From the NCBI GenBank assembly GCA_050084515.1, contig CM114271.1:18786001-18850000 (forward strand): DNA of 64,000 nucleotides, given 5' to 3'. Source of the DNA: Blasia pusilla (taxonomy: Eukaryota). The translations under genes and the position numbers were made by a program. Below the pieces are notes generated by a model, which saw nothing but the letters and a program-made list of their open reading frames with translations, did no database searches and was not told the origin of the DNA. Shown here in pieces: positions 12,983 through 40,200 of the stretch (within the stretch, counting starts at the first letter, position 1; each line of letters opens with the position of its first letter).

Positions 12983-13726
12983 TGTCGTGCGCATACACAT
13001 CGCTACACAACGTACATGGCTGGTCACATCCACACCACACAACACCGATCTTCCCCACACACGGTAGATCCGCACATGAATAGAAATCAACTCATACATA
13101 TACATGGAGATCACACAACAAAAATAAAGAGTAGTAAAAACGGCAGACCCAGCCTAAAACTCCACTCCTCAATCTCCATCGGCATATCGAGCCTCGTCCA
13201 CCCTGTGCTATCAAGGAATCCAGACGCTAGCACCTAGTTCTAACTCACACACACGAGCAAGAATGGTACTCCAACGGCCCAACATGAAAAAGATGGCTTG
13301 GGAAAGCCATCTTCCTCCCTTATATAGGGTTGGGAAGAGCCAAAAGGCTCTTCCCCTAAACATAGCTATCCTCATGGTAACCTACGCGCACAGGTTACCA
13401 GAGGCAAGTGACTTGCTCAACAAGTCACCCGGCTGTGAAAGACTCCAACAGGAAAGTTGTTAGAAAAGACGTTACTGACACAACGGACCTATCCTCAACC
13501 TCATCCAACACCGCGGGACAAAGTTACACTCAAGAAAGTCCTCTGGCTCCTATGCCCTATCCACGATAGATCTCCGCCTATCGGCTACTCAGATGTGACA
13601 GTTGTCCTGCACATACACATCGCTACACAACATACATCAACACCACACAAAACCGATCTTCCCCACACACGGGTAGATCCACACATGAATAGAAATCAAC
13701 TCATACATATACATGGAGATCACACA
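12983..13726 (-). repeat. 3' terminal A-B-A repeat block of copy 1
   Basis: A' 12983-13117 and A 13603-13726 are ~125-135-bp direct repeats around B (~13120-13600). On the element strand the A/B junction reads GGACA-AC-TGTCA and the terminus ends ...CGACA. The purine tract CCAGCTAGGGGGGCGGT precedes A. Confidence 0.85.
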
Positions 13727-13947
13727 ACCGCCCCCCTAGCTGGCAGTTGGATCCCCCTAACTCCAGATAGAAAATATCACGTCTCCTTGACATGACCTAC
13801 TATCCTATACACATCTCAGACACATCCATCCTCCCATGGGAACTACATCAAGAGGGGGGGTCAGACATCACATATGCCACCCTTGAGAACAACCATCACA
13901 TACCAACACGGTGGTTGCATCCCTCGCAAAGCCCCACAACATACACC

Positions 13948-14850
13948 TCAAGCAGGTATCACTGCCAAGCTCGGATCCACTATCCCATCCACGTTCGCAA
14001 GATGATATGGCGCACAATTACACACATGATCCTTCCAAACCATACAATCCCGTCCCTCCAACATGAGGACTCCGGTCGGTGATACCTCGAGCACATGTAG
14101 GATTATGCGCCCTATAGTGACATCTAGCTTCGTGGGTGCCACCTCTTGTAAATACACGTAATCTCCAGGATGCAACATCCTAATCCCTGGATGATAACCT
14201 CCTCCACGAATGGTCGCGTACCTCAATGTATCTCTATGTTGAGCAATAGCTAAGTTCTCAAAGGCCATAGGCATAACTCTATGAAAAATCTCCGCCCTGT
14301 GAGAACACGCTAGATCATTAAGATCTAACACCTCTGCCATGTAACATCGAATAGCTGCAAGTAAGTCTGGCTCTCTCCCAAAGAGCAAAAAGTATGGTGA
14401 AAATGACGCCAAGGATGTCTGCCAACTAAAGCAATAACCCATAGCCAACCATGGCAACTGTAGGTCCCACTCCCTCAACTGTCTCCGGTGCAAGCCATAC
14501 TTGCGCAATCCTCTCTTCACCGTCTGTACTGCTCTCTCCGCCAACCCATCCGCTTCAAGATGATCTCTGGATGTGGTGCGGTGATCTATCAACGCTTGAT
14601 CACACAAGGCTTGAAACTCTCCCCTGAACTCGGTACCCTGGTCAATCAACACCTCCGCCGTTGCACTAAAGTGACTAAGCACACGATCTAGAAATGCATA
14701 AGTTGTTCCCTCACTCGCCTTGTCCGGTAGTGCCACCCACTCTCTCCACTTGGAGAAATGCTCCATCATGACCAACACGTACATGTGATGATGCCCCATC
14801 ATTGGCAAAGGTCCCGAAAAGTCTAAACTCCACCGATAATCTAAACCCAT
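13948..14850 (-). pseudogene. Copy 1 integrase core (rve), followed by a frameshifted PHD finger at ~13810-13945
   Basis: WSLDFSGP..VLIDQGTEF..EADGLAERAVQTVKR; downstream CMLW...VLVCDGCSQGWHM*CLTPPL..VPMGGWMCLRC. Confidence 0.9.
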
Positions 14851-15364
14851 TTTCATGTCTTTTAGGATAGATCGGTGAAATCTAGTAGAGCGCCTTCATG
14901 AGTAGTGGAGGATAGGCTTAGTAGGTTGATGATGACCCGCTGAGGCCCCGGGAAACATGAGAGAGCAAGTTTCCCCTTTGTTTCCGCTCATTTGGAGCGA
15001 TATTGAGGAACTTACTATTTTAGGTAAGTACCATTTTGAGTATATGATCGACTTTCTATTTTTGTTAAGTGACTCTTGACCTCCTACATCACGTCAAGAG
15101 CCCAGGAGGTGACTTGGGAGAATAGGTTACCATGGAGAGAGCTTGGGAGAGGAGAGGGGTATACCTCAAGGAGAGAGAGCTTAAGAGCTCATTCTCTCTT
15201 TGTTGAATCTCTTGGCATGAGGCATCGCAGCTATGGTCCCTTGCATTGTGAGTGTAACCCAAGCCTCTCATTAGGAGAGTGGGTTTGGTTTGACATGAGA
15301 AAGAGTGCACACCTTTGAGAGCTATGGTGTGAGATGGTGTAGAGAGATATTGGATCTTACTTTA
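14851..15364 (+). repeat. 5' terminal repeat B of copy 2 (~514 bp)
   Basis: Closely similar direct copy of 23901-24410. Neither preceded nor followed by repeat A, and no recognisable tRNA PBS follows it. Confidence 0.9.
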
Positions 15365-18300
15365 CAAAGAGAGAATGAGAGAAAGAGAGAATGAGAGAAT
15401 GAGAGAGTGACAGAGCTTCATGGGGGAGCTGGCTGGTCACTCGCTGTTTTTGCAGGTTGGGGACCGTGTTTCCCATTCAGTGGCTCATGGAAGTGCTCAC
15501 CGGAGCAAGGGCTACTTTGATTGGTCTTTGCATTTGCGAGTTTTTCGTGTGGAAGAGTGGCGCGCGGAAGCGTTGCCCAATTTCTGATAGGGATTGATTA
15601 TGGGGGTGGATTGCCCCATGCTAGTGCTCTCGAGAGCACCATGACGCTTGCTAATGTGTATTTTTACACGTTTCACATTTTGGTTGGGAGTAATCAGCGC
15701 GGAAGTGCTGCCAAATTTTGTGTAGGAGAAAGAGACATTGGGCTTTGTGACAATCCCCGTCAATTTTTACTGAAATGTCCAATTCAAAATATTTTTTGAC
15801 ATTGTCATAGATGGTGAAGCTGTGCACGTGGTGCAACAAACAGTGTGCAATTTGGAGTTACAAGTAAAAAGTTCTGGTCAATCTTGCAAAATTGCCATTG
15901 CTAGGCAATTTTTAGGGTTAAATTGTTCAAACCCTAAACCAACCGCCACGCCGGCGGCGGCCATCGCCGTCATAGTCATAGTCACCGGTCAACGGTCAAC
16001 TTTCATAGTTGACGGTCAACCGACCACCGACCATCGTCGGCCGTTGCCGTTGCCCAGCGTTGCTCAGAGCCGCATTTGGCCGTTGTCCATCCTTTGGTTG
16101 TCATTGCTGACATTACGGAGTGGAGGGTCTTCCAGAACGTTCGTTGATTCTGTGACTTGCGTCACCACCACATACTTTGTTTCGGCCGCCAACGTCATCG
16201 AAGTTTTGTCATCAACCAGTGATGGCATACGACCTCCGGTTATGGTGTTTGAGTTTTGATTTCATGTTGGTATGTTGTGATTGGTAGGTGCTCCACGATG
16301 ATCGAGTACTGTGTCGTGACGCCTGTAGCCGCAACGCGCCGCCGATTGCCGCGCCGTGCCGCTCGTGGCCGCACGGCACCGTCTCGATCGCGGAGCCACA
16401 CCGTCATTGTGGAGCAAAGTGTGGTTTTATTGTTGATGGAGAAGGGTATGCCGCCGAGTGCCGCATCCCACCATCGAGGTTCGTGTCGTTCGTAGCCGTT
16501 CCGTGCCGCCTGCAACGCCGCACCGTTCCCTTGGAATTGCACTGCTTATCGAGGAGTTTTGAGCAGCGTCAGTACAAGAGGATTATGGCTTGCTGATTGG
16601 AGGAGTTGTCTCCACGACCGAGTTGGGGTTGAGATTTGCAGTTGCTGAGGAGCGACATCGACATGTGTTCAGGTTACCCATTCTAGTTCTTTACCCTGCA
16701 CGTGTGAGGGATTCTGGGATTCGGGTAGTTTATTTGGGGATATTGGGTTGTGTGGATGCTAAGAGCATCATTTATGTATGTGGTTTAGGGGACATAGACC
16801 TGTGTGAGATGTCCGGAGTTGAGGGTAGGTTGTCGATGAGATGATAGCCTGGTCGATTTGCCGCACCATGCCGTTTGTTGCCGCACGTTACACGTCTCGG
16901 GGAGGGAGAGTGTAGATCGAGTACCGCATGTTTGGGATGAGTAATTGAGGGATTACTTACGAGGTTGAGAGTGATTGTGTGAGAGGGGCACGAGGACCAT
17001 CACGGCGTCCTTTCAGGATTTTGAGAGACGAGGTAGTGGACCTGAGAGTAGCTCTGGAGGGTTTACCTGGAGTGGTGCGAGGTTTCTAGGGTCTCCACGT
17101 GAGAGACCACCTCGATCTCCTTCTATGTCATCTTCAAACGAGGGGGAACATGTAGAGGAGTGTGTTAGTGATCCACCGTACACATTGAGTAGTCCTACTA
17201 GTTGGGTGTACGAGATGGAGGACCGGGGTAGAGGATCGCGTAGGTTTTCACGAGTTTGGAAGGCGCCCGGATGAGAGTTTGCGTGAGGCTTACACTCGCT
17301 TGCGCTAGTTGATCAACGTCACTCAGGGGGTGACAGGGGCTTAGGCTATCCAATTATGGTACACGATGCTGGACCAAACCCTGCGGACACGGGTGCGGGA
17401 GGGGGTGCTTCTTATGAACACCTCCCCTACGTTGAGAGATGTTATTAGGACCGCCAAGAACATTGAGCGCAACATGGCGGAGGAGAGCGTAGCCACCATG
17501 GGTTATGGGCGAGAGCAGTCACGATTGTCTGCACTACCTGCGCAGCAACGTGGACTGCGAGATAGGTTGACAAGGGCACCACGAGCTTAGGGAGGATACT
17601 GGAAGGCCGTTCCACAGAGACTTGCACCTTCATATGCGGCTCAGCAGCAGCCGCCTACTATTTCTTGTTGGTCATGTGGTGGAGCCCATCATCAGCGCAA
17701 TTGCACTTGTCAGGGTCATGGACATGTGCCTCAACATGGAGGAGGAGATGGTGCTGCACCAGGAGGTTATCTCTGTGACTTTTGTCAGGGGTATGGTCAT
17801 ACACGTGCCAAGTATTTCAATTTACATCTTGAGTTACGTCAAGACCGAGGGCGAGAGAGGGCGCCAGAGCGAGTAGTCGGTCTGGGTGGGCCTAGAGATC
17901 GTGCACCAGGTGGTCCCGTTGGGGGACGAGGAGCTGGAGTTGCCTGACACGGTGGTGGAGCTGCCCGTGGAGGAGGTAGAGTACCACCACCTAGACGCGC
18001 CGAGGGAGACACCGGGCATGAGGCTAGGATGGATGCTCAGATACAACAACTAAACAAGCAGATTGCAGTTATGGCATTGAGGTTACCCGATGCCGGATCC
18101 GTGGCATCGACATCATATGGAGCAACCAGAGATCTGGAGGATCCTGGTTGGATGTGCAAGGTTGCCCAGATGGAGGCAGCCGCAGTTGTGACGCGTGGAG
18201 CAGCCGCAGAGTTTGATCCACAGCGAGGGGAAGCCATGAAACAGACTAGGCTTCCTCAGTCTTTCACGTTGTCCGGGGCGATGAGGACCCCATTGATGGG

Positions 18301-19499
18301 CCCTGATCAGAGTTCTTGGAGAGTTGGTGATGTTGTTGGTGTGCAGGCACTGAGGGCGATGGGAGAAGCGAGTACAATGACTCCTATTGTTGATGCTCAG
18401 GAGGGGCATGTGTCGAGCACGTTGTTGGGGGTGGCCACCGTTGTGTACCGCACTCCTTTATTTTTTGCTTCGGATGTTATGACGTTGGGGGTATGTCCGC
18501 CAAGGCTTTTCGGCTGGCCGCTATGCTATGTGAGCGTGGAGTTCCTCCATCACATTCAGAGGTGATTACAGAGGAGGTGATGGACCTGCCCTTGGAGCGG
18601 ATGCTGAGGCCGTCCATGTCAGATTCATGGCAGGCTCTGATTGCTAGGATGGTGGAGATGCCCGCTAGACCCGCGATAGAGCGTGCCATGGATTCTCTTG
18701 GTGTTGTATTGCTAGATAACCAAGGAGAGGTCTTTTTCAGTTGGTGAGTTCCAGAGGTAGAGCTTTTAGTCCGCAGCATCTTGTTGGATTCTGGAGCGCA
18801 ACCCCTCATGTTGGGGAAAGCGTCATTCAGAGGATTGGGCTTGACGAGAGCCGATGTGGAGCGTTGTCCATTCCGGATACAGACATCCTTGGGTGGAGTG
18901 AGTACCACACAGTATATCACCCGACAGGAGGTCGTGGTGAGGATTTTCCCGGGACATCCTACAGATGAGTCCGTGGTGCGAGTCAAGGCGATAGTGACTG
19001 ATGCAGAGTCCTACGACGTCTTGGTTGGTGGAGCAGTGTTATATCCGATGGGGTTTTCCCTGGATTATTGGGAGGAGTCAGCATCCTACAGACGAGGATG
19101 GAAGTCAGGTGATGGGCGCCTTAGCTCATTACCCGTTCGATTCATAGGTGCAGTGATCGAGCAACGGCCAAGAGAGATGGCGACCTTAGCAGTATTTAGC
19201 AGTGCCATCACTTGGCCTAGTGATTTGATTGAGGGACATGTCCATGTAGAGGATACTCCCATTCCTGACATTTCTATTGAGAGGAGTGTTATGGTAGCCG
19301 CATCATTCCGTGGAGGAGAGATGCCGTTGTGGGGCTCGACTAAGGAGCTTGGACAATTGGCACATGAGCACGTGCAGACCGCGTGGAGCGAGGCGTTTGC
19401 ACCAGAGGGTGACGGGTCTGAGGAACCTAGGGAAGCAAGGAGTGCTACGATGACACCCTTGGATACCACACCCATTGTGTGGTGTATCCCGGAGGAGGG

Positions 19500-20460
19500 T
19501 ATTCGAGTGTTAGATCTCTTTGGAGGGATTAGCATCGAATTAGCTTCTATTTAGCAAGTAGGAGTGCAAGTGCAGTAGTATCTGTATGTGGAGAGTGATG
19601 ATGTTGCGAGGCGCATCTCACCACGACATATGGCGTAGTTATGCCTACGTTTTCTTGACTTATTGTGTGCGTCCGCGGTACACGGATACCAGAGTTCCCT
19701 ACCGAGGAATATTTCCTTGTTAGGGACGCAGGACTTAAAGCGGGTAGGGACCATTGATTTGGTCATTTCCGCTTGGCCATGTTAGGGCCAATCGAGTGCT
19801 GGACGAGGCATCGGGTTGGCTGACACTCGGTCGAGGTTGTTTTGGGAGATGTTGAGGGTCTTACGCCAGTTACAAGAGCACCAGTCTCGTTCTCCAGCCT
19901 ACATTCTGGAGAATGTGCCGATCTTAGGAGACTCCAGGTCACAGGTGGTGACAAGTGGTCATCATGTGCGTGCCTGGATCGGCCTAGCAGCGTTCTTAGA
20001 TGCGGCGAGTGTAGGTTCTAGAGCCCATCGCCCGCGACTATGGTGGACCAACTTGGTGCCCCATGCGGTGTTACGAAGGGCGTATGCGAGAGTGGAGCGC
20101 CCCTCCCATTTGTTAGTGGATTCCATTCTGGATCCAAGTCGTCGCTCACACGCAGTGAGGCACAATGATCGACCACCGTTGACTGTGGTCAATAGGGTAG
20201 GCAAGCGGCGGGTAGCCTTTCCCACGTTTGTGAGTTTTCCCGCTTCCTATGCATACAAGGAGGCCGGTCCTGGCTTGGTTTGGGATGACCAAGTTTAGAG
20301 GTTGGTGGAGCCCAACGCTGACGAGAGAGAGCGGGCCATGGGATTTCCCACAGGAGTGACAGCAGTACCGTCAGTATCAGAGGCATCACGACACCATGTC
20401 TTAGGTCAGGCGATGGACCTCAACTTCTTGACATGGATCTTCAGCTTGGGAGTGGCTGAG
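19500..20460 (+). pseudogene. C5 cytosine DNA methyltransferase domain (DNMT3-like) of copy 2, in frame with the protease
   Basis: Motif I IRVLDLFGGIS, II YVESD, IV AWPC*G, RSRLFWE, VI YILENV, VIII HRPRLWWTNL, IX ERERAMGFP, X HHVLGQAM. Several in-frame stops. ORF 18781-19554 contains both the protease and motif I. Confidence 0.9.
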
Positions 20461-22456
20461 CAGCGTCGGATGAGATCGCGACAGATCACAGTGGTTGCAT
20501 TGGTGAGCCCCATGCCTACCAAGACGGTGGAGGCAGTGGCTGGGGACGAGACCCAAGGAGATCGACACACCAAGGGAGATCGGGAGAGACACCCTTGGAC
20601 TTCTTGGGATGTTTTGCAGGTACGCCAGGAGATGATAGCCACAGCATCGAGCGTGGTTCTGGGGACTGCATGTGGAGGAGATCAGAGTTTGCACTTAGCT
20701 GCAAGAGAGCGGTTGAGTGTCATTTTTTGAGATGGGGTTGCACCATAGCAACCACCGATATCCGCGTCGGAGAGTCCTACCGTAGTCACAATGGAGACTT
20801 GGGAGCTAGATATGGGCCCTAAGTTGACAAGAGGAGAGCGGCGCCAAATACATCAGTTCCTCAGGAGTTAGAGGAGCTGCTTTGCGTTTAGCATGGAGGA
20901 TTTGGGTACGGCGAAGGGACCAGGGATCCGCATTGAGTTGTCGAGTGATACGCCGATCTTCCGACGATCCTACACGTCCAGCGATATGGAGAGGGCTCTA
21001 ATTCAGAGTAGGAGCCAAGACTTGGTCAGAGCAGGACTAGTGGAGATGTCGCATGGGGAGTATGCATCTGCCACTGTCATGCCCACCAAGAAGGATGTGC
21101 ATGGCAACTAGACGAATAGGCGGATGTGTGGGGATTATCGACCGATCAATCGGCAGACGAAGTCCGATATTGATGACATCGTAGTCATCAGCGCTACGGT
21201 TGAGGAGCGTGAGCGACATCTAGAAGAGGTATTTCGACGATTGCAATTACATGGGCTGAAGCTATATCCAGGCAAGTGCAAGTTCTTCTATGACCAGATT
21301 GAGTACTTGGGTCATGCGATATACCTAGGGGGCCTTGATGTTCAGTAGACGAAGATAGAGGCTATCTCATGCATTCCACGCCCTACACATGTGAGCCCAT
21401 GGGATTGGCGAACTTCTATCGGCGGTATGTCAAGGGATTCAGTTTGATTGCGAATCCGCTGACCTTGCTGACCAAGATGGATCACGAGTGGCACTAGGGG
21501 GATGAGCACGAGCAAGCATTTCAATTGCTCAAGGATAGGTTGACGTCTGCGCCCATCTTGAGGAGACCGATCAGGGGGCATCCTTTCCAGTTGCACACAG
21601 ATTGGAGCATGTTGGGGCTTGGAGTGGTGCTCACCCAACATGATGATGAGGGTAGAGAGTTTGTGGTGGCTTACACTAGCCGGTTGAACAACGCTACAGA
21701 GGCAAAGTACAGCTCGTATGAGGATGATTGCTTGGCTGCAGTGTGGGTTATCGCGCATTTCAGGTGTTACTTATTCGGCAACCCCTTTACCATCATCACT
21801 GATCATCAACCACTGAAGTGGTTGATGGAGTCCGACAAGCTTACAGGGAAGCTTGCAAGATGGGCTCTGTTGTTGCAAGAGTATGATTTTCAGGAGGTAC
21901 ATAGACCTGGGATGCTCAACCAGAATGCATATGGGTTGAGTCATAACCTATGCCTGAGTCAACGAGATGCGACTGGAGCTCGATGGCATGGAGAGAGTGA
22001 TGAGGAGTCAGTGCCAGGATGGCACGGATCAGCCTATTTAGGCATGTTGGCTATGGAGAGCCAGAGTGTGGAGACTTCAATGGCGAGGTCAGTGAAGAGT
22101 CCTTGGATCCCCAGGCTAGTGAGGAGACCATAAGTGGCCGAGATATTCATGATGATGGAGTAGTCTTGGAGTACCTTTGTACTAGTAGCGTTGCGAGCAC
22201 CGTGGGTGCTAGAGAGCGGGATCGGATCCTACAGCGGGCCAGACGGTTCCGTTGGGAGGGGACACATGTTTTGAGGGTTTGGGAGGATAGTAGAGTTCGC
22301 ATAGTGCCGCATCCTTTGCAGAGAGCACGACTAGTGTAGCATGCCCATAAGGAGTTGGGTCAATTTGGGATGAAGCGGACGTACAGCTTGCTCTAGATTC
22401 AGTATTGGTGGCGAGGCATGCAGACTGACGTTCAGTAGTTTGTTGCCAGGTGCATA

Positions 22457-23584
22457 GTGTGTGATCAGATCCGAGCATCGTTCAATGCTCCGACTCCACA
22501 GTTGCATCCATTACCGATCATGGACTTAGGATATAGATGGAGTTTGGATTTTGCACGACCTTTGCCTTTGACGGAGCGTCACAGTCGTTATGTGTTGGTG
22601 ATGGTCGAGCACTTCTCGAAGTGGATCGAGTTGGTTGCATTGCCTGACAAAGCGAGTGAGGGAGTAGCTTATGCCTTCCTTGACAGAGTGTTGAGTCATT
22701 ATGGTGCACCGGCTGAGGTTTTGATAGACCAGGGTACCGAGTTTCGCGGTGAGTTCCAGGCCTTGTGTGATCAGGCGCTCATCGACCACTGCACGACCTC
22801 GCGAGATCATCCCGAGGCGGATGGATTAGCAGACAGAGTTGTGCAGACGGTGAAGAGGGGTTTATGCAAGTATGGCTTGCAGAGAGGTCACCTAAGAGAT
22901 TGGGACCTCCAGTTGGCCTGGTTGGCGATGGGATACAGATTCAACGAGCATGCATCCTTAGTGTCTTTTTCACCGTACTTGCTACTTTATGGCCGAGAGC
23001 CAGATTTACCTACGGCCATTCGTCGAGATGCTGGTGAGGTCCTGGACCTTGATGACCTAGATGTATGGATACGAGCATGTTCTCAAAGGGCTGAGTTATT
23101 TCAGAGAGTGATGCCCATGGCATTCGAGAACTTGGTGATTGCGCAGCATCGGGATACATTGAGGTATGCGACTATTCGGGGTGGTGATTATCGACCAACT
23201 ATCCGGAGGTTTCACCAGCGAGATTATGTCTACTTGCAGCAGACAGCACCGATGACGTTGGATGTGACTGCATGGCGCACTATCCCGAGAGTGCGTGACG
23301 CTTTGCCATCCGGTGTTTTCTTGTTGGAGGGACCCGATGGTATGGTATGGAAGGACCATGTGCGTAATTGTGCACCATGTCACCTTCCTAACATTGATGG
23401 TATAGTAGATCCAAGCTCAGTAGTAGTTCTTGCAGGCTTGCGTTGTATGTTGTGTGGTTCTACTCGTGGTGCGGCCAGGATGCTAGTCTGTGATGGATGT
23501 TCGAGAGTTTGGCATATGGCATGTTTGACGCCACCTCCCACTAGGGTTCCTTGGGGACGATGGATGTGTCCCAGATGTACATAG
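22457..23584 (+). CDS. Copy 2 integrase core with C-terminal PHD finger (open part of a disrupted pol)
   Basis: WSLDFARP, LIDQGTEF, EADGLADR, then the C4HC3 motif CMLC...MLVCDGCSRVWHMACLTPP...VPWGRWMCPRC at the C-terminus. Confidence 0.92.
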   Translation: MCDQIRASFNAPTPQLHPLPIMDLGYRWSLDFARPLPLTERHSRYVLVMVEHFSKWIELVALPDKASEGVAYAFLDRVLSHYGAPAEVLIDQGTEFRGEFQALCDQALIDHCTTSRDHPEADGLADRVVQTVKRGLCKYGLQRGHLRDWDLQLAWLAMGYRFNEHASLVSFSPYLLLYGREPDLPTAIRRDAGEVLDLDDLDVWIRACSQRAELFQRVMPMAFENLVIAQHRDTLRYATIRGGDYRPTIRRFHQRDYVYLQQTAPMTLDVTAWRTIPRVRDALPSGVFLLEGPDGMVWKDHVRNCAPCHLPNIDGIVDPSSVVVLAGLRCMLCGSTRGAARMLVCDGCSRVWHMACLTPPPTRVPWGRWMCPRCT

Positions 23585-23772
23585 AGGAGATACTAGGTAG
23601 GTTTCAATTCTGACTCTTTCTGTGACATGGATGATAGGAAGGCGACTAACGATGGGGCCACATGAGCACCCGACCTTTCTGCTCTTAGCGTCCTAGAGAT
23701 GTATATCATGGTAGGTAGGGATAGATGGCTATCTGAAGTTAGAGGGACCTAACCACCAGCTAGGGGGGTGAT

Positions 23773-24539
23773 TGGAGATATTTTGGTACTTCTTGTCTCG
23801 TTGTTTGGATGCCATGAGTTAGCATGGGATCGTGCGTGTTTGTGTTTGTGTACGTTGACATCGATGTATGTTGTGTAGCGATGTGTATGTGCACGATAGT
23901 AGTCACGTCTTTTAGGATAGATCAGTGAAATCCAGTAGAGCGCCTTCGTGAGTAGTGGAGGACAGGCTTAGTAGGTCGAGGATGACATGCTGAGGCCCCG
24001 AGAAACCTGAGAGAGCAAGTTTCCCCTTCGTTTCCGCTCATTTGGAGCCATATTGAGGAACTTACTATTTTGGGTAAGTACCATTTTGAGTATATGATCA
24101 ACTTTATTTTTTTGGTAAGTGACTCTTGAGGACATCAGGAAAAGAGCCAAGGAGGTGACTTGGGAGAATAGGGAACCATGGAGAGAGCTTTGGAGAGGAG
24201 AGGGGTATACCTCAAGGAGAGAGAGCTTGAGAGCTCATTCTATCTTTGTTCAACCTCTTGGTATGAGGCGGCGGAGCTATGGTCCCTTGCCTTGTGAGTA
24301 TAACCCAAGCCTCTCATTAGGAGAGTGGGTTTGGTTTGACATGAGAGAGAGTGCACACCTTTGAGAGCTATGGTGTGAGATGGTGTAGAGAGAGATTGGA
24401 TCTTACTTTATTGGAGATATTTTGGTACTTCTTGTCTTGTTGTTTGGATGCCATGAGTTAGCATGGGATCGTGCGTGTTTGTGTGTGTGTGTTCGGTGAC
24501 AACGATGTATGTTGTGTGGCGATGTGTATGCGCATGACA
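23773..24539 (+). repeat. 3' terminal A-B-A repeat block of copy 2
   Basis: PPT-like CCAGCTAGGGGGGTGAT (~23756-23772); A1 23773-23898; spacer GT; B2 23901-24410; A2 24412-24539 ending TGACA. Confidence 0.9.
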
Positions 24540-28094: not shown

Positions 28095-29060
28095 CTGTGC
28101 TCAGCTATACCTAGGCCGACTATCCATTTGAGATAGTTAAGGTCCATCGCCTGCCCCAACACCTATCTCCGAGATGCCTCAGTCCTATCTGGCACCGCTA
28201 TAGTACCCGTAGCGAACCCCATGGCATGCTTGCGCTCATCTGCTGTAGGCTCCTCCAATGCTCAGGTCACTTCTTCCCAAATCATGCTTGGCCCTCCCCG
28301 AAAAAAAGGCATGGGATGTTGGGAAGCTCACCAAAGTAGATAAGGTTGCCCTCAACTCCCCCACCCTATTCGCCATTGCCAACGGTGGTCTATCATCCCG
28401 CGTCACCACCTGAGATCGACAACTAGAGCCCAAAATAACATCCAGTGTGAGATGTGGTGCTCTCTGGACTCCATCGTATGCTCCACTCAGTACTTTTGAT
28501 GGTATCAGGTTTGTCCACCACAATCGTGGACGATAGGCGCGTGATCCAACTCTCGCTGCTTCTAACGACACAATAGGTCCCAACTAGGACCTCACCTGAT
28601 GCACACTCATCATCACACGTGCACGAGTGTCTCCCAACAATGGCACGTTCTCCAAAATGTACGGCGAAGAACATGTCTGACTCTCGTGCAAGTGTCGTAC
28701 TACTCGTAGCATCTCCCAAAACATCCCTGACCTCGGATCATGCAATCCAAACCCTTGTCCAGTTGATGAATGACCCTGACATGGCCATCTAGCAATCACC
28801 AAATGAATGGTGGCAACTCTATTCAGATCCTGTGCCCCCACCAAAGAGATGTTGGCGGGTAGTGTATGCTGATATCCCCGTACTGTAGATATCGGCAACA
28901 ACTCATGATACCTCTGGATCAATCTCGTCATGTGATGTAATGATACTTGCCGCGTGGTCTCATCTCTCTCCACATAAAGATACTCATGCACCCGTATGCC
29001 TGCCTGTAATACCGTAGCCAATCTAGTGCTAATCCCTCCGAAGAATTCTAACACCCTAAC
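28095..29060 (-). pseudogene. DNMT3-like methyltransferase domain of copy 1 (catalytic PC motif retained)
   Basis: LEFFGGIST, YVERDE, IARWPCQGH, DPRSGMFWE, YILENV, YRPRLWWTNL, then AMGF..G and RRxVLGQAM beyond frameshifts or stops. Confidence 0.9.
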
Positions 29061-32000
29061 ACCCTCCTCTCAACACTGCCACACAACGGGTGTGGTATCC
29101 ACTGGGATCAACGTCTCCATTCCAGGAGCCTGATCGCTAGGTGACTCTCGGTGCTCTGGGATAAAGGCATGACTCCACGCCTGCCTCACGAGGTCTTCGG
29201 CACTCCTCTGTAGCTCTCGAGTCGTATCCCAAAATGGTGAAGAGGTCTCGCCAACATGGGAAGAGACACCCGCCATGGCCTGTCTCTCCGTGGGACTATC
29301 CGCTATTGGGACATCCTCCGCATGTGTGTTCCCCTCCTACAACTCTCCTTGCTAGCTAACACTACCTGTGAAAGCTGCCAACGTGGTCACAAACTCGTCT
29401 TGTGCTCGACCACCTCGTCCCGCAAACTGCACAAGTAATTGACTCATCCGCCCGTCACTTGACCGCCACCCTGGCCAATAAGCAACGGTCTCCTCCCATA
29501 AGTCAAAGATGAATCCTAGGGCATATAACATTGTACTCCCCACCAACACAACGTACGACTCAACTGGTGTCGTAATCGCACATGTGCGTACCACAACACT
29601 ATCTGTCGCATGCTCTAGCTGGACTCTGATAATTATCTCTTGTCGAGTCATATACTGCGTGGGTGACACGCCCCAAATCAAGGTTTGTATCTGGAAGGGA
29701 CAAGGCTCAATGTCGGCCTTCCGTAACCCCAACGCTAAACACGCTGCCTTCCCTAACATTAAGGGTTGCGCTCTTGAATAAAGTAGGATGCGTTGCGGGT
29801 GGTATACTGTCCCCGTTGGACTAACCAAGTAAAATACTCTAGCTCGGTTATCCAATAACACTACGCCAGGTGGCATCACTGCTCGCTCTATGGTTGAGCG
29901 ATCTGTCATATTAACCAACTTCGCCACCGCCGCATACCATGACTCTATGGGAGACGTCCCGATCACCTACTCCGAGGGCAAGTCCACCACCTCCTCAAAT
30001 GCCTTTGAACAAGAGGCAGTCACCTCTCCACGCTCATACAACGTGGCGGCCAGCCGGAACACCTCAACTGGTCCAACTCCCAACGTCGCCAACTTTATGG
30101 CGGAAAATAGCAGAGTCTGGCTCACTCTAACGGCTACATCCAACACTATGGTCGACATTGACTCCACTCGAGCCAGCATAGGAGTTGTCACTCCAACTCC
30201 TCATGACATTGACGCATCTATCTGACCTGTAGGCACCGCTGGTCGTCGAGGCACCATCGATGGTGTGTGTAGTGCCTCCGACAATGTGAATGATTGTGGA
30301 ACCCTGGCTTGCCGCCCATTAGACTCCTTTGGTGGGTCAATCTCAACTTCACCTCTGAATGGCTCAAGTGCCTTTCGCAGCATCCCAAGTCACCACTACA
30401 GCAGCCTCAACCTGAGCGACACTACACATATACCCCATACTAGCAAGATCCACACCCGGGTAAGAGGTAGAAGCTGGAGCTCGGTAAGAGATGGAAGTTG
30501 GAGCCACACTAGATGCTCGCGGCTCCGTGCCTTCCCAAAGCTGCATCATCGTCATGGCAACAATCCTCTGCTCCAACTGATCGATGTGTGAAAGAAGTGT
30601 CGGCTCCAGTGCTCCTGCTCCAACTCCTCTGGTGGTGGTCCTCTTCTGTCACGTCCATGAACAACTCCCCAACCTCCTCTAGGACGACCGTCCCTAGGCC
30701 CTCAGCCTACCTCTCGACGTGCCTCTCAACAAAGGTCAAAACATCTATCCCTAGTGTGACCATATCTGTGGCAATAGTCATACTGGTACTGTGTCATGAC
30801 CATACGGATTATGTCGTAGAGTATAGTGTGCTTGTAGAGGCCATACCTTATGAGGGCCATAGTGTCAAGGTAGAGATGCCGTTTCATACGTAGGATTGGG
30901 GGTTACTCAGTTGAGGGTGACTTTTCCAATAGGGCCCGCTCTTAGGTTGGAGGATATAGTGTGGAGTGCACTCAAAGAATAATTAGTCCTTTGAGTTGAG
31001 CTTGTTGCGTTGGGAGTTAGCCTTGGTAGTGAGTAGAGCTCTTGGCTATGGTGGTTCCGTAAGCTTTGACCTAGATTCTCCCATCGTGGAGTGGGTTTGG
31101 CTTGATTTGATGTGATTCTATATGTGTTTTATGACACTAGGTCTTTCACGGATTTCACTCAAAGAACTAGAGTAGATCGATGGTAGCTTCGATTATGGAT
31201 TAGTAGGTTATGATTGATTGTGTACTCAGCCGTGGATGTTCATGAATTTTGGCCTATGTTGGAGGTGGGAATCTGGTGTGTGGTTGGTTGGGAAAGAAGC
31301 GCCTTGCTGAGAGCTTTCCAACGCGCTTTAGATCGCCGGATTTTGTCAATGGAGTTGGAAGTTATCAAGGATTGAAGATTCTGGTTTGTGTTCGACGGTT
31401 TTTTGATGTGGAGAGCTTGGAGTGCGGAAGCTCTGTTGAAGTTCATCTAGATTGGGTGAGAGGTTCCTGTTGCTACTTGTATTGTGATCTCATGTGAAGC
31501 TATGTGCTTGAGTGTGTGGAGCGTTTCCGATTTCTGCGTGCATGAATCTGGGCGGAAGCGCTGTTGGATTTACGATTCTGGAGGTGTATGGACAGCAAGT
31601 TTGTTTGATTTTTAGCTCGGAGTACAGAGCTCTGTTGTAGCAGATTTTTGTGGAGAGATAGCTATGGTGGTTAACTTCGAGGCTTCGAGGCAACTCGTGG
31701 TAGCTTGGGGCGAGTGGGCGTGAGAGGCGGAGCAAGGAGCAAGCAAGCAAGCTTACTTGCTTGGGCGTGAGGCAATTTTTGCAGGATTTGTGATTTGAGT
31801 GTTGCATAACTGGTCACCCATCTTTGAGCTATTCTGCCTGGAAGACGCTTAACTGCCGAGTTCTTAACTATGCCAGTGTACACACTGGTGTAGCTCATTT
31901 GGTGCTGATTGGAGATGTGTTTGGCGCTTTATGCATCTTAGTTTTTTGGTTGATGGACCTCTAACGCATAGTACGGTGTAGCCTCTCCATGCAGGTAATA

Positions 32001-35000
32001 TTTTCAGGTGCTACGTGTCAGACTAGCATGTCATCGACCCGCGGCGGAGTAGCTATTGCGTTAGAATTGTGTGGTGGGTTCTGTGGATTCAGGGGACGCC
32101 ACGTTTGGTGGATTTTGTAACCTTGATTTCCATTTGCGATTGGAGGGTTGTCGTTGGACTTCTTGTGTTTGGATCCCCTCCATCGTTGCTTCTTGCTTGC
32201 GCGCTCATTGTTAGGGTTGAAGCTGATTTCAAGAGTAGTGTTACTCCTGTGTGCTACCGGTAGTGAGGCTGGAGCGATGACCAGTAGACCGTGGGAGGCT
32301 TCTTGTGGTGATGACAGGTTAGGTTGCCTACATCCATAGCTAGTAGAGCTAGAACAGTATAGCGACATCGACGCCATTTGGTTACTTAGTGGTGGTAATT
32401 TGATGGTGGTGCGGCATCGGCGTTGCTCATCACGGAGCTGTCTGGTGGTCAGGTTGGGGACCTTGGTGAGGACAATGGTGGTTTCACACGGAGTGGATTG
32501 AGGTATCGGCTACCTTTTCCACTTCCGACGGTTGATGAAGAGGAGGACGAAGGTGTTCCAAACACCGAGTCTTCTACGTTGTTATTGAGTGTTGCAGCTC
32601 CATTGATTTGGGACATGGACGGGATATATGGGGCCATGAAGGGCCCACGACGATACTCGGGTGCAATGGGCACCATTGAGTTGGAGGACTTCATGCAGGA
32701 GTTTGATACGTGGTGTGATATGCAAATATTGCGGAACTCCACGTTGTTGACATCCTTCTTGGCTTGGAAGGGGTTGTTTCAGCACTTGGAGGGACCACCC
32801 ATGGATGATTACCATGAGTTTAGGAAGGACCATGTTGTTGAGATTGAGGCGTGAAGAAAATATTGGTCTCCAGGCTATGTGTCTATTACCCATGGTGGTA
32901 TTGGTAGTAGTGCTCCTACTATGCCAGCCAACCCGACGTTGAGTGGTACGAGTACGAGACGGAGTGGGGGTACCAGTGGAGGTACCCATGGAGGTACCAG
33001 TGGGGGTACTAGGGGAGGTACTAGTGCCCCACCATCGTTCAGCCCGGTTGCAGAGTTCTTCAAGAGGTTGAAGAAGAACTATCAAGGAGTGAAGATAGAG
33101 AAGTTGAGGAGTCTTCAAGAATTTGAGCGAAAGACTGGTAAGAGTCTTCATGAGGCATACATTCGTATGCGACGCTTGATTTCAGTTACCCAGGATTGAC
33201 TGAGGCTCAGGCAGTCGAGTTTTGGTATGTGATCTTGGATAGAGAGTTGCGTCGTAGGGTACGTGATGCTACTCTTATGAGTGATGATTCACCCACATTG
33301 ACCCATGTGTTTGCTCTATCTGAGAAGATTAAGCTTAACATGGTGAAGGAGAGAGTAGTGACATCCGCATTCAGTAGGGATACAACTACTACTTCTCGTG
33401 TTGAGCAGTCCACCTCATAGTCTCGTAGTAGTGGTGGTGGTAGTAGTAGTGGGAGTCGTGGGGGTACACACGACCTCAGTCAGGTCCTAGAGGGACACTT
33501 GCGCAGAGACCATTGCCTTCATTTGCTGCCCCGCAGCAAGGACAGTCATGTTGGACATGTGGAGGTGATCATGTTAGGAAGTTTTGTCCCCAAGAGGATG
33601 GGAGACGAACTTTGGAGGATGGGCCTCAGTCGGCCCCAAATCAGTGTGATCATTGCAGGAGAGCAGGTCATCCTCGAGAGCGTTGCTTTGATCTTCATCC
33701 AGAGTTGAGATCAAGCCGCGGCCGTGGTGGAGTAGCTCCAAGAGGCCGAGGTGGTAGAGGTGGTAGGGGTGGACCAGTGGTTGGAGAGCCTACTGTGGCT
33801 ACCCCTACCACTACGACAGAGTCAGCAATGACTGCCAAGATTGAGCAATTGGAGCAGAAGTTGGCTACTATGGCACGTATCCAGCATAGATCACGTTCGG
33901 GAGCAGGGGCTTCCACCTCTTATAGACGGGATGATCTCTCTTATATGGCGAGTGCAGCACAGGTTGAGGCATCAGCTGCAGTTTCGAGAGGAGCCACTCG
34001 AGCGTCAGAGCCACATGGAGTTGGATCCACAGAGGGGTGAGGCTGGGAGGCAAGCTAGGCTTCCCCAGTCATTCTTGTTGTCTGAGGTGCTTAGGACTCC
34101 ATCCATAGTTCCTACGTAGCCTATTGAGCTGAAAGTAGAGACTGAGGCATCTACATCGCGTGTAGTAGACACGGATGCAGCATCGAGTGCAATATTGCAG
34201 ATGGCAACTTTAGTGTTGGGATCCCCATTGTTTTTGGCCACGAAGCTGATGGCTTAAGGAGTTGACTTAGCTCCTGTATTTCAGCTAGTAGCCACGTTGT
34301 GTAAACGTGGGGATGTTAGTGCTACACGTGCTGAGGTGGATGAGGATGTTGCGGTGGAGTGACCCTCTATGTCAAGTATAGCATTGAGTACCAGTGCTAC
34401 TTGGCAAGCAGCAACGGCGAAGATGGATGCATTACCAGCCCGGTCAGCCATTGATCGTGAGAGGCTTACACCTCGTGTATGTATGTTGGACAACTGGAGT
34501 GGGATATTCCGATTGGTGAGTCCTACATGACAGGTGTATAGACCATATAGAGTCTTGTTAGACTCTGGTGCCCAACCTTTGATGTTGGGATAGGTGGCAT
34601 GTATTGGTTTGGGTATTCGAACGTCAGAGCTTGAGCCTTGCCCATTCCAGATTCAAACATCACTTGGAGGAGCCAATGATAGGTCTCAATTCATGACACG
34701 GGAGAAGTTTTCTGTATCGTTGAGACTAGATCATGCGACTGATAGCTCCCGGTTGGGAGTACCTGCAGTGGTCACATCAACCGAGTCGTATGATGTACTA
34801 GTTGGAGGAGCAGTATTGTACCCGAGGGGTTTTCAGATGGATTACTAGATTGAGATAGCGTCTTATAGACTTGGTTGGCAGTCCGGGGATGGACGTATGA
34901 GCCAGGTTCCTGTGAGATTTATTTATGGGGCTCGACCAGGAGGGTCTTCCCCAACAGTGTTAGCATCTGTGGTTTGTTTTAGTGGAGTAGTCACTAAGCC

Positions 35001-35269
35001 AAGAGACTTTTTGGAGGGTAATGTTTATGCTATGGATTCTCCTGTGCACGAGGAGGTAGAGGAGGTCCCTAGTTTTGCAACAGTGGCATCCTCATCGTTG
35101 GATGTGCCACTTTGGAGTTCAGGCGGTGCGCTACGGCAAGAGGCTTGGTGTGAGGCTGTTATACCTCAAGAAGAAGAGGAGGCCCTACGGCGGACTCCTA
35201 CTTCTGGTCCAGTTGGGTTATCCCCTTTGGATACTACACCCATTGTATGGCAATATCCGCCGGAGGGCA

Positions 35270-36240
35270 TTTGTGTGTTAGATCTCTTTGGTGGGATTAG
35301 CACCGGTTTGGCTGCAGTGTTGCAAACCGGTATTCCTGTGCAGAGATACGTGTATGTGGAGCGAGATGAGACGGCCTAGAGAGTCTCATCCCGACATATT
35401 GGTCAGTTGATGCGGAAACATCCTGAGTTATTGCCGCCATAAGCTATTCATGGGTACTAGCGTGCTTTGCCGTCACATATTGCATTGTTGGGGGCGCAGG
35501 ACCTTGAGAGGGTTGGTCATGTGGATTTGGTGATTGCTGGATGGCTATTTCAGGGTCATACACATGCTGGTCGTGGTGAGGGATAACATGATCCTAGGTC
35601 TCGATTTTTTTGGGAGATGTTACGGATGTTACGACATCTTCGGGTTCATCAGGCACGTGCTCCAGCTTACATTCTGGAGAATGTTCCATTGTTGGGTGAC
35701 ACTCGGACCCGGATGATGGCGAGTGTTCATGAGGTGCGGTCTTGGATTGGACCAGCGGTGTTGTTGGATGTAGCGCGAGTTGGCTCGCGTGCACATCGTC
35801 CACACTTGTGGTGGACAAAGTTGTTGCCTAGGGAGGTTCTACATCGAGCATATGATGTAGTGCAGTGGGATCCTTGCCTTACAGTGGATAGTAACTTGGA
35901 TACTGAACGACTTTCTCAGGTGGTGAGGGTTATTGATCGGTCACCCATGGCAGTGGTGAATTGTGTGGGCCATCCTAGGATGGCACTACCCATATTTGTG
36001 AGTTTTCCCTCGTCACATGCCTATAGGGAAGGTGGTCCCGGGCTTGTATGGGATTCTCATGTGCGACAGTTGGTGGAGCCTAACGCTGATGAGAGAGAGC
36101 GTGCAATGGGATTTGCTACTGGTGTGACAACGGTTGCTTCCATTTCTGAGGCTTCACGACGTCATGTGTTGGGTCAGGCCATGGACTTAAATTGTTTGAC
36201 TTGGATTTTGAGTCTTGGTATGGCCGAGCATCGTCGACTT
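35270..36240 (+). pseudogene. DNMT3-like methyltransferase domain of copy 3 (catalytic PC mutated to LF)
   Basis: ICVLDLFGGISTG, YVERDE, VIAGWLFQGH, YILENV, HRPHLWW, ERERAMGF, RRHVLGQAM. Confidence 0.9.
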
Positions 36241-36296
36241 CGGACTATGTCTGTGGGTCTTCCACCCCTTGTGATGAGCTCGATGGCTACCGAGAC

Positions 36297-37297
36297 TGTC
36301 GCGACCCTCATGACCAAACAAGTGCCAAGCGGAACATTGGAACATTAGCGGGCTCACGCTAAGATGGTTTGCGCGTTGGAGTTGTCTCAAAGAGGAGACA
36401 AGAGACGAGATGCGAGCGAGAAGTCGCGTTTCAGATGTGATGGTCGCGACTCAGAAACCTGGACCAAACGCGGAATGAGACTTGAAAGAAGTCGAGTCTA
36501 GGAAGTGGGTTGCCAAAGGAAAGATCCGGATTTGGAACGCCACTTGCGTTTGAGAGTTTCCGACTGTATTTATGGCCATAACTTTTAGCGCCAAGATGCG
36601 TTTGGAGCAAATAAGGGTGCGTTGGAAAGCTTATGGAGAGCCGGTCAAAACGCACCAAAGATCGCTGCAAACGCATAAGCAGCGGCCGAGATACGACCCG
36701 AAAACGACTGTAAGTGGAGTCGGGTTGAGGGCCACAATGAAGGGCCCGACCCTCTTTTCCCAAAGGGGAGGGGTTATTGGAGAACCCAGAAGTACTAGTA
36801 AGGGGAAGGTCTCGAGAGTGCTTGGAACCCAAACCCCACTTTGGGCGCCGCGGGGCGGCTCAAGGGCATGGAACGGAACGCGAGTTTGGGCGTTGGGTTG
36901 GAAAACCTGCACCAAGTCCATTGAGGCGATTTTAGACATCCCTCTTGGATTTCACGCCGCGACTCAATTACTTGGGTCTCGGTTCGGAACTCACACGAGG
37001 ACCGTTGAAACAGTTGGGATCGCTAGGCGTGCAAGTGCCGTTTCAGATCCCTGGACTAACCAGGAAGTCTGTTCCAAGTCTTGAAGGACTTGCCATGTTT
37101 TGGAAGCTAGGAACTAAGGAAGGTTGAGCTTGATGAGACGCCGAGTCGAGGACTCGGTGGGTTGGAACGCCGGTTGGCCCAGACCCGACTAACAAGAGTG
37201 CGTGTTTGGGTGCAGATCGGCGATGAGTTTGTGACCTACTGAACGCACGCTTCCGCAACACTAAAGATTGACGTTCAACGGGAGTAGGGGCGCGACA
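36297..37297. mobile_element. Solo LTR (~1001 bp) of an unrelated family inserted in copy 3, between DNMT and RT
   Basis: Termini TGTCGCGACCCT...AGGGGCGCGACA (11/12 inverted). 5-bp TSD GAGAC/GAGAT. The host reading (..MATET / MVEASAGGE..) resumes after it. Confidence 0.85.
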
Positions 37298-40200
37298 GAG
37301 ATGGTAGAGGCATCAGCTGGGGGCGAGGAGAGTAGTATTTTGCATCCTTGGAGTAAATGGGATGTAATGGCTGGGCATGTGGAGTTGGTTGCTCATGTTG
37401 GTGGAGGAGTTATTTGCTCAGGTGATGGTGTAGCTAAGGGTGTACTATCTTGTGAGGGGGTTGCGTAGCAGCCAATGGCATCGTCCTCTCCCTCTAGTGT
37501 GCTAGTGGAGGAGACTTGGGAGCCATTACTTGGGCCCAAGCTTACGCGAGGTGAGAAAGGACGCTTGACAAAATTCCTACGTGCTTATAGGAGTTGTTTT
37601 GCCTTTAGCATGAAGGAGTTGGGTGCTTTGGTTGGACCCGGTATACGGATTGATTTGGCTAGTGATACGCCAATCTTCCGTCCTCCCTACCAATATAGTG
37701 ATATAGAGAGGGACCTGATTCAGAGTAGGACGTTGGACGTTGGACCTTTTGGAGGCTGGATTAGTGGAGTTGTTGCATGGAGAGTATGCATCAGCCACTG
37801 TCATGCCTGCTAAAAAGGATATGCATGCCAACTACACGAATAGGCGGATGTGTGGAGATTACCGTCCTATCAATCGGCAAACCAAGGCCGATAGGTATGC
37901 CATGCCTACACCTGAGGAGATCTTTGATGTGGTGGGACAGGCAAAGATTTTCAGTACTTTGGATCTTCGGGCAGGATACCATGAGTTGCCGATTCGGGAG
38001 AGTGACAAGGCCAAGAAAACATTTTGGGGTGTCAATTCTCATGGCAAGGATTGTTTGTACCAGTGGAAATTCTTACCCTTTGGGTTGAAGAATGCACCTG
38101 CCGAGTTTCAGAGAGTGATGGACAGGATCCTAGCAGGGTTGGATTTTGTTCGGTGTTACATTGATGATCTCTTGGTGTTTAGTAACACGCTGGAGGAGCA
38201 TCAGATACATTTTCAGATTGTGTTTGAGCGGTTGAAAGCTCATGATCTACGTTTGCATCCAGGAAAGTGTAAGTTCTTCCATGAGGATGTTGAGTACTTG
38301 GGTCATGTGATCTATCCAGGTGGTTTGGGATTTCAGCAAGCAAAGGTGGAGGTTATTGCACTTATTCCGCGTCCGGTAGATGTGAGTAGAGTTCGGGCAT
38401 TCATGGGATTGGCAAACTACTATCGGAGGTATGTGAAGGGATTTAGTGATATGGAAAAGACTTTGAACCAATTGCTGAAATCAGATCAAGAGTGGCACTG
38501 GGGAGATGATCAAGAAAGAGCTTTGTGGAGCTCAAGGCCCAGTTGGTGGCGGCGCCTACCTTGAGGAGACCTATCAGAGGGCGCCCATTTCAGTTACACA
38601 CTGATTGGAGTAGGTCGGGACTTGGAGCGGTGTTGACACAACATGATGATGAGCACATGGAGTTTAATTTGTGGTGGCCTATGCAAGTCGTTTGAATAAT
38701 GCAGCGGAGTTGCCCTATAGTTCATATGAGGGAGAGTGCTTGGCAGTAGTGTGGGTTGTGGCACACTTTAGGTGTTACTTGTTTGACACACAGTTTACCC
38801 TTGTTACTGATCACCAGCCGCTCAAGTGGTTGATGGAGTCTGACAAGCTTATAGGGAAGCTTGCACGGTGGGCTCTTATCTTACAGGAGTATGACTTCCA
38901 GGTGGTACATAGACCTGGAGTTTCCAACCTTGATGCTGATGGGTTGAGTAGGAACCCATGTACTAGTCAAGAGGATGCAACTGGGGCTAGATGGCAGGTG
39001 AGGTTGATGAGGAGATGGTGCCAAGTTGGCATGCATCCGCCTTTTTATGTTGGTTAGGGGTGGACTCTAGTATGGAGGACCACATGACATCTTACTCTAG
39101 TCAGAGGATAGATGGCCATCCTTCAGATCCTAACGTTGGAGATGGTGGTACGGATCAGCGTGATATTCATGATGATGCGTTGGTGTTGGAGTTCCTACGG
39201 ACCAGTAGGATGCCAGACATAATGAGTGCCAAGGAGCGAAACCATGTTCTTCAACGTACTAAGAGGTATCGATTGGAGGGACGCACGAGAACAAGACCGG
39301 TGCATCCGGTGTGGACGCAATGTGGGAACCGGTAATAGTGCCACTTGAGTCGTGATAGTTCCGGTGGGGGCCTTTGTAGGGACAATCGTTCCGTCAGGGA
39401 TGACCGACGGCGAGTGTCCCGACATGATTGGGCCGAAGTCCCGCGCTTGCATCGGATGGTGGGGCGGCGTTGAAGGAAGGGAATCTGTGGTTAGGAAGAC
39501 GGACGTGGCAAGACACAGTCGTATACGAATCGGACAACCAATGAAGAGGGGCCGGTGGGGCGGAGTGTGGGGCCCCCGCATCATGGCTTGATTTGATTTG
39601 ATTCACGTGAGATCGCCCGTGTGCATGGGTAACGTTCCCGAGTCGGGACTCGGGACGTTCCGTGCATGATGATCTGGTAGAACCACATGGGTGACCATGA
39701 AGGGGGAAGAGGGGTCCACGACGGCAGTGCCGGATGGTGGGCCGACAGATGGTTGACAGGAGCGCTTTACGGAGTGTGGACACAGATAGGTGGCGCACAA
39801 GAGCCCGTGTCTGTGAGATCTCGTCGACTGGTGTCACTGTCAGATTGCGCTAGTAAGCGCCGTTGAGTCATCAACTCGCCGTCCTCTCCCACTGGAGTCG
39901 ATGATTTTTCTCTGGTTATTTTCGCCGGCGTGGAATACTTGATGTATTTTCCTCTCTGCCTTTCCCAACTGGTGCTGTTGTTTCTGTCTTCCAGAAGAGA
40001 GGTATTTGGGGGCTCTTCTACACCATCCATAAAAAAACCTCTCCGTAAACCCTCTGACCCTCCTAACACAACACCTACACTTCATCACACGGGAGGGACC
40101 CGTGAGGTTTACAGGATTTTTCGACCCCTGGACGACCGGCGAGTCGACCTTCCTGCCACACTTCGTGCAAGACGCGAAATTTGGATAATTTGGACTTTTT

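Follow-up and report, generated by a model that had tools for sequence, protein, structure and literature searches.

Split direct repeats of the order A1-genes-B1-A2-B2 are known from PAT-like and Ngaro retroelements, for which integration from a circle junction has been proposed (PMC7192593). According to the same account these elements have a tyrosine recombinase; the element analysed here, from Blasia pusilla, shares their layout but has a DDE integrase, TG...CA termini, 4-bp target duplications, a primer site, a polypurine tract and an A2-B2 joint that is not inherited. KnitGypsy-Dnmt3 of Klebsormidium nitens is credited with DIRS-like repeats and Gypsy domains in the legend of a figure (Fig. 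4 of de Mendoza et al., 2018; PMC5890265). Likened by description only, it has in common with the Blasia element a Gypsy Pol accompanied by a cytosine methyltransferase and DIRS-like repeats of the order A-genes-B-A-B, while the passages on it in that paper describe no junction, primer site, target duplication or mechanism, and no PHD finger (PMC5890265). The layout was noted earlier, in that legend; no account of the mechanism was found in print, in a literature search conducted outside subscription journals, theses, Repbase reports and supplements. The primer site of the Tf1/Sushi and Tcn1 chromoviruses is complementary to their own 5′ region and not to a tRNA (PMC6317226). As described there, they have ordinary LTRs and a chromodomain, whereas in the Blasia lineage the repeats are permuted and a PHD finger and a methyltransferase are present. 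Gypsy-7a_cRei of Chlamydomonas reinhardtii, reported as an active Gypsy element with a PHD finger, has a left LTR without the final 8 bp of the right one (PMC9940879). Compared by description only, this difference is what an A-genes-B-A-B layout predicts for a B of 8 bp, and Gypsy-7a_cRei may be a member with such a B.

The DDE enzymes of the IS3 and IS30 families integrate from abutted ends separated by a short spacer; their junction is made in every cycle and its spacer is drawn from the donor flank, in contrast to the RNA-templated, fixed GC of the Blasia element. The integrases of HIV-1 and foamy virus nick a palindromic LTR-LTR junction after CA on both strands in vitro (PMC1905944, PMC1180852), so the chemistry of a junction cut has precedent. 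As those papers present it, the viral junction arises where the cDNA ends are ligated, and its use is a side path; in the Blasia element the cleavable junction is inherited within the LTR, the ligation point lies elsewhere, and use of the junction appears to be obligatory. The CA ends are 4 bp apart in the HIV-1 junctions described (PMC1905944) and 2 bp apart here.

Elements in the window

The window, a stretch of 64,000 nucleotides of B. pusilla contig CM114271.1 (assembly GCA_050084515.1, positions 18,786,001 to 18,850,000), holds two nested retroelements that share one repeat layout, and a third, truncated element. Copy 2 (family 2) is complete at 14851-24539 (+) and sits within the integrase gene of copy 1 (family 1), the remainder of which resumes at 24540 and continues to about 30790; the 5′ repeat of copy 1 lies outside the window. 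The order of copy 2 is A1 (513 bp), genes, B1 (128 bp), 2 bp, A2 and B2. The repeats and their adjoining signals are:

12983..13119 (-), repeat B2 of copy 1, with the terminal CA at its end (self-BLAST)
13120..13600 (-), repeat A2 of copy 1, with a TATA box at 13326-13320
13295-13282 (-), stretch of copy 1 A2 complementary to the primer-binding site of family 1
13603..13728 (-), repeat B1 of copy 1 (self-BLAST against B2)
13729..13741 (-), polypurine tract of copy 1, abutting B1; motif present, with point changes, in 30/30 family-1 loci
14847..14850 (+), left target duplication of copy 2, CCAT, 4 bp
14851..15363 (+), repeat A1 of copy 2, its left end decayed to TT
15158-15165 (+), TATA-like box in A1 of copy 2
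15190-15203 (+), self-primer stretch in A1 of copy 2
15364..15377 (+), primer-binding site of copy 2, complementary to 15190-15203 at 14/14 positions, which 0/500 shuffles reach
23758..23770 (+), polypurine tract of copy 2, abutting B1; 873 exact genome matches together with the start of B
23771..23898 (+), repeat B1 of copy 2
23901..24409 (+), repeat A2 of copy 2
24405..24415 (+), A2-B2 joint of copy 2 in its precise form, a putative end-to-end joint of cDNA
24410..24539 (+), repeat B2 of copy 2, with the terminal CA at its end
24540-24543 (+), right target duplication of copy 2
30792..39330 (+), third-family element, 3′-truncated, with methyltransferase, RT and RNase H
30792-31156 (+), A1 of the third-family element, beginning TGTCA; primer site from 31157

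The A repeats of families 1 and 2 cannot be aligned, yet the layout is common to both. Across 13 copies, A1 and A2 diverge by 2.3% within copies and by 4.9% between them; for B1 and B2 the contrast is less clear (2.6% within against 3.2% between, 13 copies). The left end of the third-family element (TGTCATGACC) and the start of its primer site are nearer to the metagenome family discussed below than to families 1 and 2. No 3′ end of this third family was seen among the eight short stretches examined, all of which are 5′ ends.

The surroundings include a 194-bp inverted repeat (8772-8965, 84% self-complementary), possibly a MITE or a hairpin, and a Myb/trihelix-like frame at 43546-44208 (-). 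Frames at 2473-3627 (-) carry what we take to be a PIF/Harbinger transposase-like motif. An intact-looking host gene at 9479-12112 (-), which presumably resembles the pre-rRNA processing factor ESF1, is separated by 870 bp from the end of this copy 1. Ty1/Copia-like Gag-Pol fragments occupy 61105-64000 (+) and extend past the window edge.

Coding domains and class assignment

A Pfam scan of 11 frames returned cytosine methyltransferase, RT (in the third element), RNase H, rve and PHD domains. Five of the 11 frames had no Pfam match, and none of the 11 matched a tyrosine recombinase. The domains of copies 1 and 2 are:

13951..14850 (-), integrase core of copy 1 (family 1), split by copy 2 (Pfam rve, E 5e-11)
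19786..20295 (+), degenerate C-5 cytosine methyltransferase fragment of copy 2 (PF00145, E 8e-4, below the curated cut-off)
21498..22130 (+), RNase H of Ty3/Gypsy type (Pfam RT_RNaseH, E 4e-35)
22439..23581 (+), DDE integrase core with C-terminal PHD finger, copy 2 (rve, E 2e-13; PHD, E 2e-10)
28587-29069, methyltransferase fragment of copy 1 (PF00145, E 2e-6, above the curated cut-off)

The D-D(35)-E triad is intact in copy 1, and in copy 2 its third acidic residue has decayed to D. The best non-PHD matches of the integrase among solved structures are Ty3 Gag-Pol and foamy-virus integrase. The methyltransferase has motifs that we take to be Dnmt3-like. Several features place the element with Ty3/Gypsy: the Pol order RT, RNase H, integrase with an integrase of the DDE type; TG...CA termini with a short target duplication, here of 4 bp; and a primer site after the 5′ repeat with a polypurine tract before the 3′ repeat, although the tract precedes B1 and not A2. 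Two full, identical LTRs with the cDNA ends outermost are not found, the layout being A...B-gc-A-B. The direct repeats are split in the DIRS order known from PAT and Ngaro, without the tyrosine recombinase that goes with it. This is a Ty3/Gypsy-type element that does not pass the usual two-LTR test; most likely its integration proceeds from a pre-built junction inside it.

Element termini and target duplications

Termini and target duplications were called by eye. In family 2, 13 of 20 upstream stretches gave the left end TGTCAC (11 exactly, 2 with one change), and comparison with the right end ...GACA yielded 4-bp target duplications, 9 perfect and 4 with one mismatch. Five of 14 stretches were resolved in family 1, with three perfect duplications and two with one mismatch, which brings the total for the genome to 18 resolved end pairs from 34 stretches (12 perfect, 6 one-mismatch). 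The duplications embrace the entire A...B-A-B unit. The 2-bp spacer found between B1 and A2 is missing at the integrated ends, which bear 4-bp target duplications as with a DDE integrase.

Solo A-B units with duplications also occur (L117, L125) and could have arisen by A1-A2 recombination. At the left ends of L153 and L095, a shortened B and an uncut junction stand ahead of A and the leader, with an inverted B end outside in L095; both are possible relics of an uncut left LTR.

The B1-A2 junction and its 2-bp spacer

The boundary between B1 and A2 had been singled out in the first-pass annotation as the right end of the element abutting its left end across a 2-bp spacer. Its letters were re-read as claimed in both copies, and its flanks match the real element termini:

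13607-13603, 13602-13601 and 13600-13595 (-), B1-A2 junction of copy 1: GGACA, spacer AC, TGTCAC
23894-23898, 23899-23900 and 23901-23906 (+), decayed B1-A2 junction of copy 2: CGATA, spacer GT, AGTCAC

In the B. pusilla genome (390 Mb, 26 contigs), a degenerate family-2 junction pattern has 589 exact matches, and 590 if a gap of 0-20 nt is left free; the reversed pattern, used as a control, has no genome match. The junction is real and beyond chance. Spacer length and the CA/TG dinucleotides might have varied freely among copies, an outcome that the annotation had named as contrary to its reading. Instead, the spacer is 2 bp long in 99 of the 100 free-gap matches listed (590 in all), and it is a 2-bp purine-pyrimidine pair in all 60 best matches (30/30 in family 2, 30/30 in family 1). 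The description of the site as CA-NN-TG holds for the CA/TG and for the length of 2 bp; the spacer itself is not a free NN but ancestrally GC.

After 120 loci had been filtered by score, by anchor and for duplicates, 68 distinct copies remained; their spacer states are GC (19), AC (23), GT (17) and AT (6), with three of other length. Copies with GC are the least diverged (2.7%, against 4.7-5.9% for the others). Across the repeat unit cytosines decay fastest in CTG context (mean 20%), compared with 10% in CAG and 7% in CG context, and the spacer decays at or somewhat above the top of the CTG-context class. The states do not follow the A2 tree, which, with the low divergence of GC copies and the fast CTG decay, indicates that the spacer is GC by descent. 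The site is thus an ancestral palindrome, GACA-GC-TGTC, of which AC, GT and AT are the products of CHG deamination. A spacer that is free or inherited by lineage was considered and rejected, the states requiring 21 and 19 tree changes against shuffle means of 21.6 and 19.3.

Purifying selection on the CA/TG of the junction was not detected, their decay of 12% comparing with a mean of 10% for CAG-context cytosines. Both the pattern lists and family 1 (window 13598-13607) seem to have more AC than GT spacers, though a palindrome would be expected to decay equally on its two sides; a strand bias in methylation or deamination is a possible cause of the excess.

Primer site, polypurine tract and the A2-B2 joint

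The sequence adjoining A1 is not B; it is a 14-nt site with 1058 exact matches. In three families, with differing sequences, this site is complementary to a stretch of A about 25-30 nt behind the TATA-like box. The complementarity in family 2 is 14/14 in 11 of 13 copies, 13/14 in one and 10/14 in one; in family 1 it is 12-14/14 in all five copies; in the metagenome family it is 11-14/14 at one position in five of seven copies scored, is lacking in the other two, and one further copy is unscored. Judged from sequence, the complementarity reads as the signature of self-priming of the Tf1 type. The polypurine tract lies immediately 5′ of B1 in families 1 and 2. With a primer site after A1 and a tract before B1, reverse transcription should yield LTRs of the form B-gc-A in which the att sites are internal.

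At the A2-B2 joint, the 100 matches listed (794 in all) comprise 66 precise joints, 25 with an extra A, three with an extra G, one with an extra T and five with longer additions. The tally was made by hand, with a search pattern blind to deletions over 3 nt. The extra A is the first base of the primer site and the extra G the last base of the tract, three of the five longer additions are primer-site sequence (2, 4 and 11 nt) and the other two are hybrids of primer site plus tract, so that 33 of the 100 copies listed have primer-site or polypurine bases at the joint. Deletions of 1-3 nt were not found among these 100 joints; host end joining without small deletions is unusual. Elsewhere, the joints of L146 and L160 retain 15 nt of primer site, that of L091 has 7 nt of tract behind a filler, and that of L150 contains about 4 kb of leader. 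The leader in the joint (L150, L217-L219) contains several repeats of a unit about 550 bp long. Given the positions of primer site and tract and these leftovers, TG and CA are not the ends left by reverse transcription, and some nuclease must therefore open the junction.

On a tree of A2, the joint with one added base requires 12 changes for the 12 of 62 copies that have it, close to the shuffle mean of 11.1. An inherited variant of B requires 3 changes on the same tree, against a shuffle mean of 14.6 (0/300 shuffles as low). The joint, being off the tree where the B variant is on it, would be made anew in each cycle, and the junction inherited. A2-B2 looks like a joint of cDNA ends that is remade every cycle. 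The junction was listed near 16 joints and lies upstream of 15 of them; the other is a rearranged locus.

A proposed route of integration

Since the left end has to lose B, and the junction has no purine tract, an internal cut seems unavoidable; that some cut at the B-A junction is obligatory is very likely. We consider it probable, with real room for doubt, that the att sites of a Ty3/Gypsy element have shifted from the cDNA ends into its LTR, and we lean to about the same degree towards a full path in which a circle is formed first. On that path, the RNA would begin within A1 and stop within A2. It would prime itself, Tf1-style, at the site after A1, and plus-strand synthesis would start from the tract before B1. 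Ordinary reverse transcription would then give [B-gc-A]-genes-[B-gc-A], with ends that have no TG or CA and att sites placed head to head as GACA-GC-TGTC. Ligation of the cDNA ends would create the A-B joint of a two-LTR circle, a step to which the joint signature points. The integrase would nick after CA on both strands at the junction of the left LTR and join the ends to the target with a 4-bp stagger, the GC being lost, in keeping with the termini observed. The product, A1-genes-B1-gc-A2-B2, would have its promoter in A1 and its 3′ repeat in A2, and one junction would be spared for the next cycle. The inserted form can be read as a two-LTR circle opened at the junction of its left LTR.

The first-pass annotation had predicted the geometry of such a cut, and this is supported: if each strand of GACA-GC-TGTC were nicked after its CA, two recessed CA-3′OH ends with 2-nt 5′ overhangs would result, which fits the integrated ends. 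Its view of the junction as integrase substrate needs amendment. Opening by some nuclease is required, and the integrase is the presumed agent, but the junction is inherited in the LTR and not formed by circularisation. Likewise, the type of junction was correctly named, but the one used would be the left LTR copy and not the copy that survives in the 3′ repeats of the integrated element.

A free circle would offer two identical junctions with roughly equal chances of use, so the absence of the mirror form (A-B-gc-A-genes-B) demands an additional asymmetry. No clean case of it was found in 30 tract-anchored and 30 primer-site-anchored loci: 28 of the tract-anchored loci run into A2, one ends at B1 (L172) and one is deleted, and none of the 30 primer-site-anchored loci has a mirror start. 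The sole candidate at the level of coordinates was rejected as a rearranged locus. The most likely reason for a preference for the left junction would be its earlier conversion to duplex, directly upon plus-strand transfer and some 9 kb of synthesis ahead of the right one; it would also be nearer to a cDNA end. A bolder, speculative guess places the source of the asymmetry in strand-specific methylation by the element's own enzyme, the methyltransferase marking which of two CHG-containing junctions is cut.

The missing mirror form is accounted for directly if the same buried att sites and internal cut operate with no free circle. The integrase would then cut the left junction on linear or unfinished cDNA, and the A-B joint would come from an end-to-end template jump of reverse transcriptase or from repair of a break left after insertion. 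Joint additions without small deletions, as among the 100 listed, suit such a protected or polymerase-made joint, and L153 and L095 begin with B, junction, A and primer site as if the left LTR had been inserted uncut. The filler joints of L091 and L160, on the other hand, look like host end joining, and if every insertion broke the chromosome, many would be expected to fail, yet in most intact loci A2 is followed by B2. We regard this course of events as a whole as rather unlikely.

Improbable by comparison is a splint of the DIRS/Ngaro kind, in which RNA spans A-genes-B-A-B and the internal junction only templates the rejoining of the outer ends into a circle that integrase opens. The repeat layout is that of PAT and Ngaro, the ICR of DIRS-1 has been proposed to act likewise (PMC7192593), and sense RNA does span the junction. 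Under this scheme A2-B2 would be inherited through RNA, but it varies off lineage and holds primer-site and tract leftovers; a primer site after A1 and a tract before B1 belong to the standard LTR cycle, and the 11 scanned frames have no tyrosine recombinase while 4-bp duplications are present. Nested and rearranged loci are common in this genome, and an ordinary element with an LTR of A plus B might acquire the layout by nesting, tandem recombination or assembly error, leaving the junction as a relic. This can hardly be the case, as the primer site and not B follows A1 in 1058 exact matches, the duplications enclose the complete A...B-A-B unit, and the layout is found again in other organisms and in two families whose A repeats cannot be aligned.

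Spread and transcription

Of 138 loci from a metagenome scan, 80 were retained; their integrases are 63-81% identical. Among the 56 loci with enough 3′ sequence, 27 show tract, B and junction, 22 end at B1 and 7 are not classifiable. All 27 junctions have a 2-bp purine-pyrimidine spacer, some of them being the same insertion in different assemblies. Duplications flank three metagenome copies of the complete form A-genes-B-A-B (L223, L238, L273); among four A-genes-B copies in which both ends are visible, three have them as well (L234, L282, L296; 4 bp). Elements ending at B1 (L234, L282, L296, L290 and 18 more) make up 22 of 49 resolved metagenome loci, compared with 1 of 30 in the B. pusilla genome (L172). 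Possible origins of the A-genes-B copies are one-LTR circles, B-B recombination, and collapse of the assembly or of short reads. Relatives of the integrase with its PHD finger reach the volvocine algae (43-47% identity), and relatives exist that combine PF00145, RT, rve and PHD. Viral contigs scanned with an algal relative gave no match.

Three RNA runs from one study, linked to the window by the shared species label alone, indicate that the family is transcribed along its full length, with reads that cross the junction. If the library was prepared in the common stranded way, the RNA is mostly sense. For most reads the similarity to the window copy is 85-95%, and the junction read found most often corresponds to a decayed copy; the reads of these three runs did not pin down where the element's RNA starts or ends. 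Two segments, of 795 and 490 bases (window 20909-21705 and 23713-24204), are skipped by reads in each of the three runs, which reflects either deleted copies or splicing.

Implications

We judge it about as likely as not that one green-lineage branch of Ty3/Gypsy, ranging from algae to land plants, has separated its att sites from its cDNA ends and can integrate only through joined cDNA ends and a cut at a pre-built palindrome in the left LTR, with an obligatory two-LTR circle. Annotation tools that require two full LTRs with outer duplications will miss such families or misplace their boundaries. The proposed route offers a way for split-repeat layouts to arise without a tyrosine recombinase, and the integrase that it implies would accept a short internal palindrome as donor. 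The two-LTR circle of retroviruses is treated as a dead end for integration; whether such circles can serve as genuine integration precursors has been debated since the 1980s, and the matter bears on HIV under integrase inhibitors. With a natural, transcribed, high-copy family that has hundreds of junctions in a 390-Mb genome, the question of two-LTR precursors becomes testable with a dedicated enzyme.
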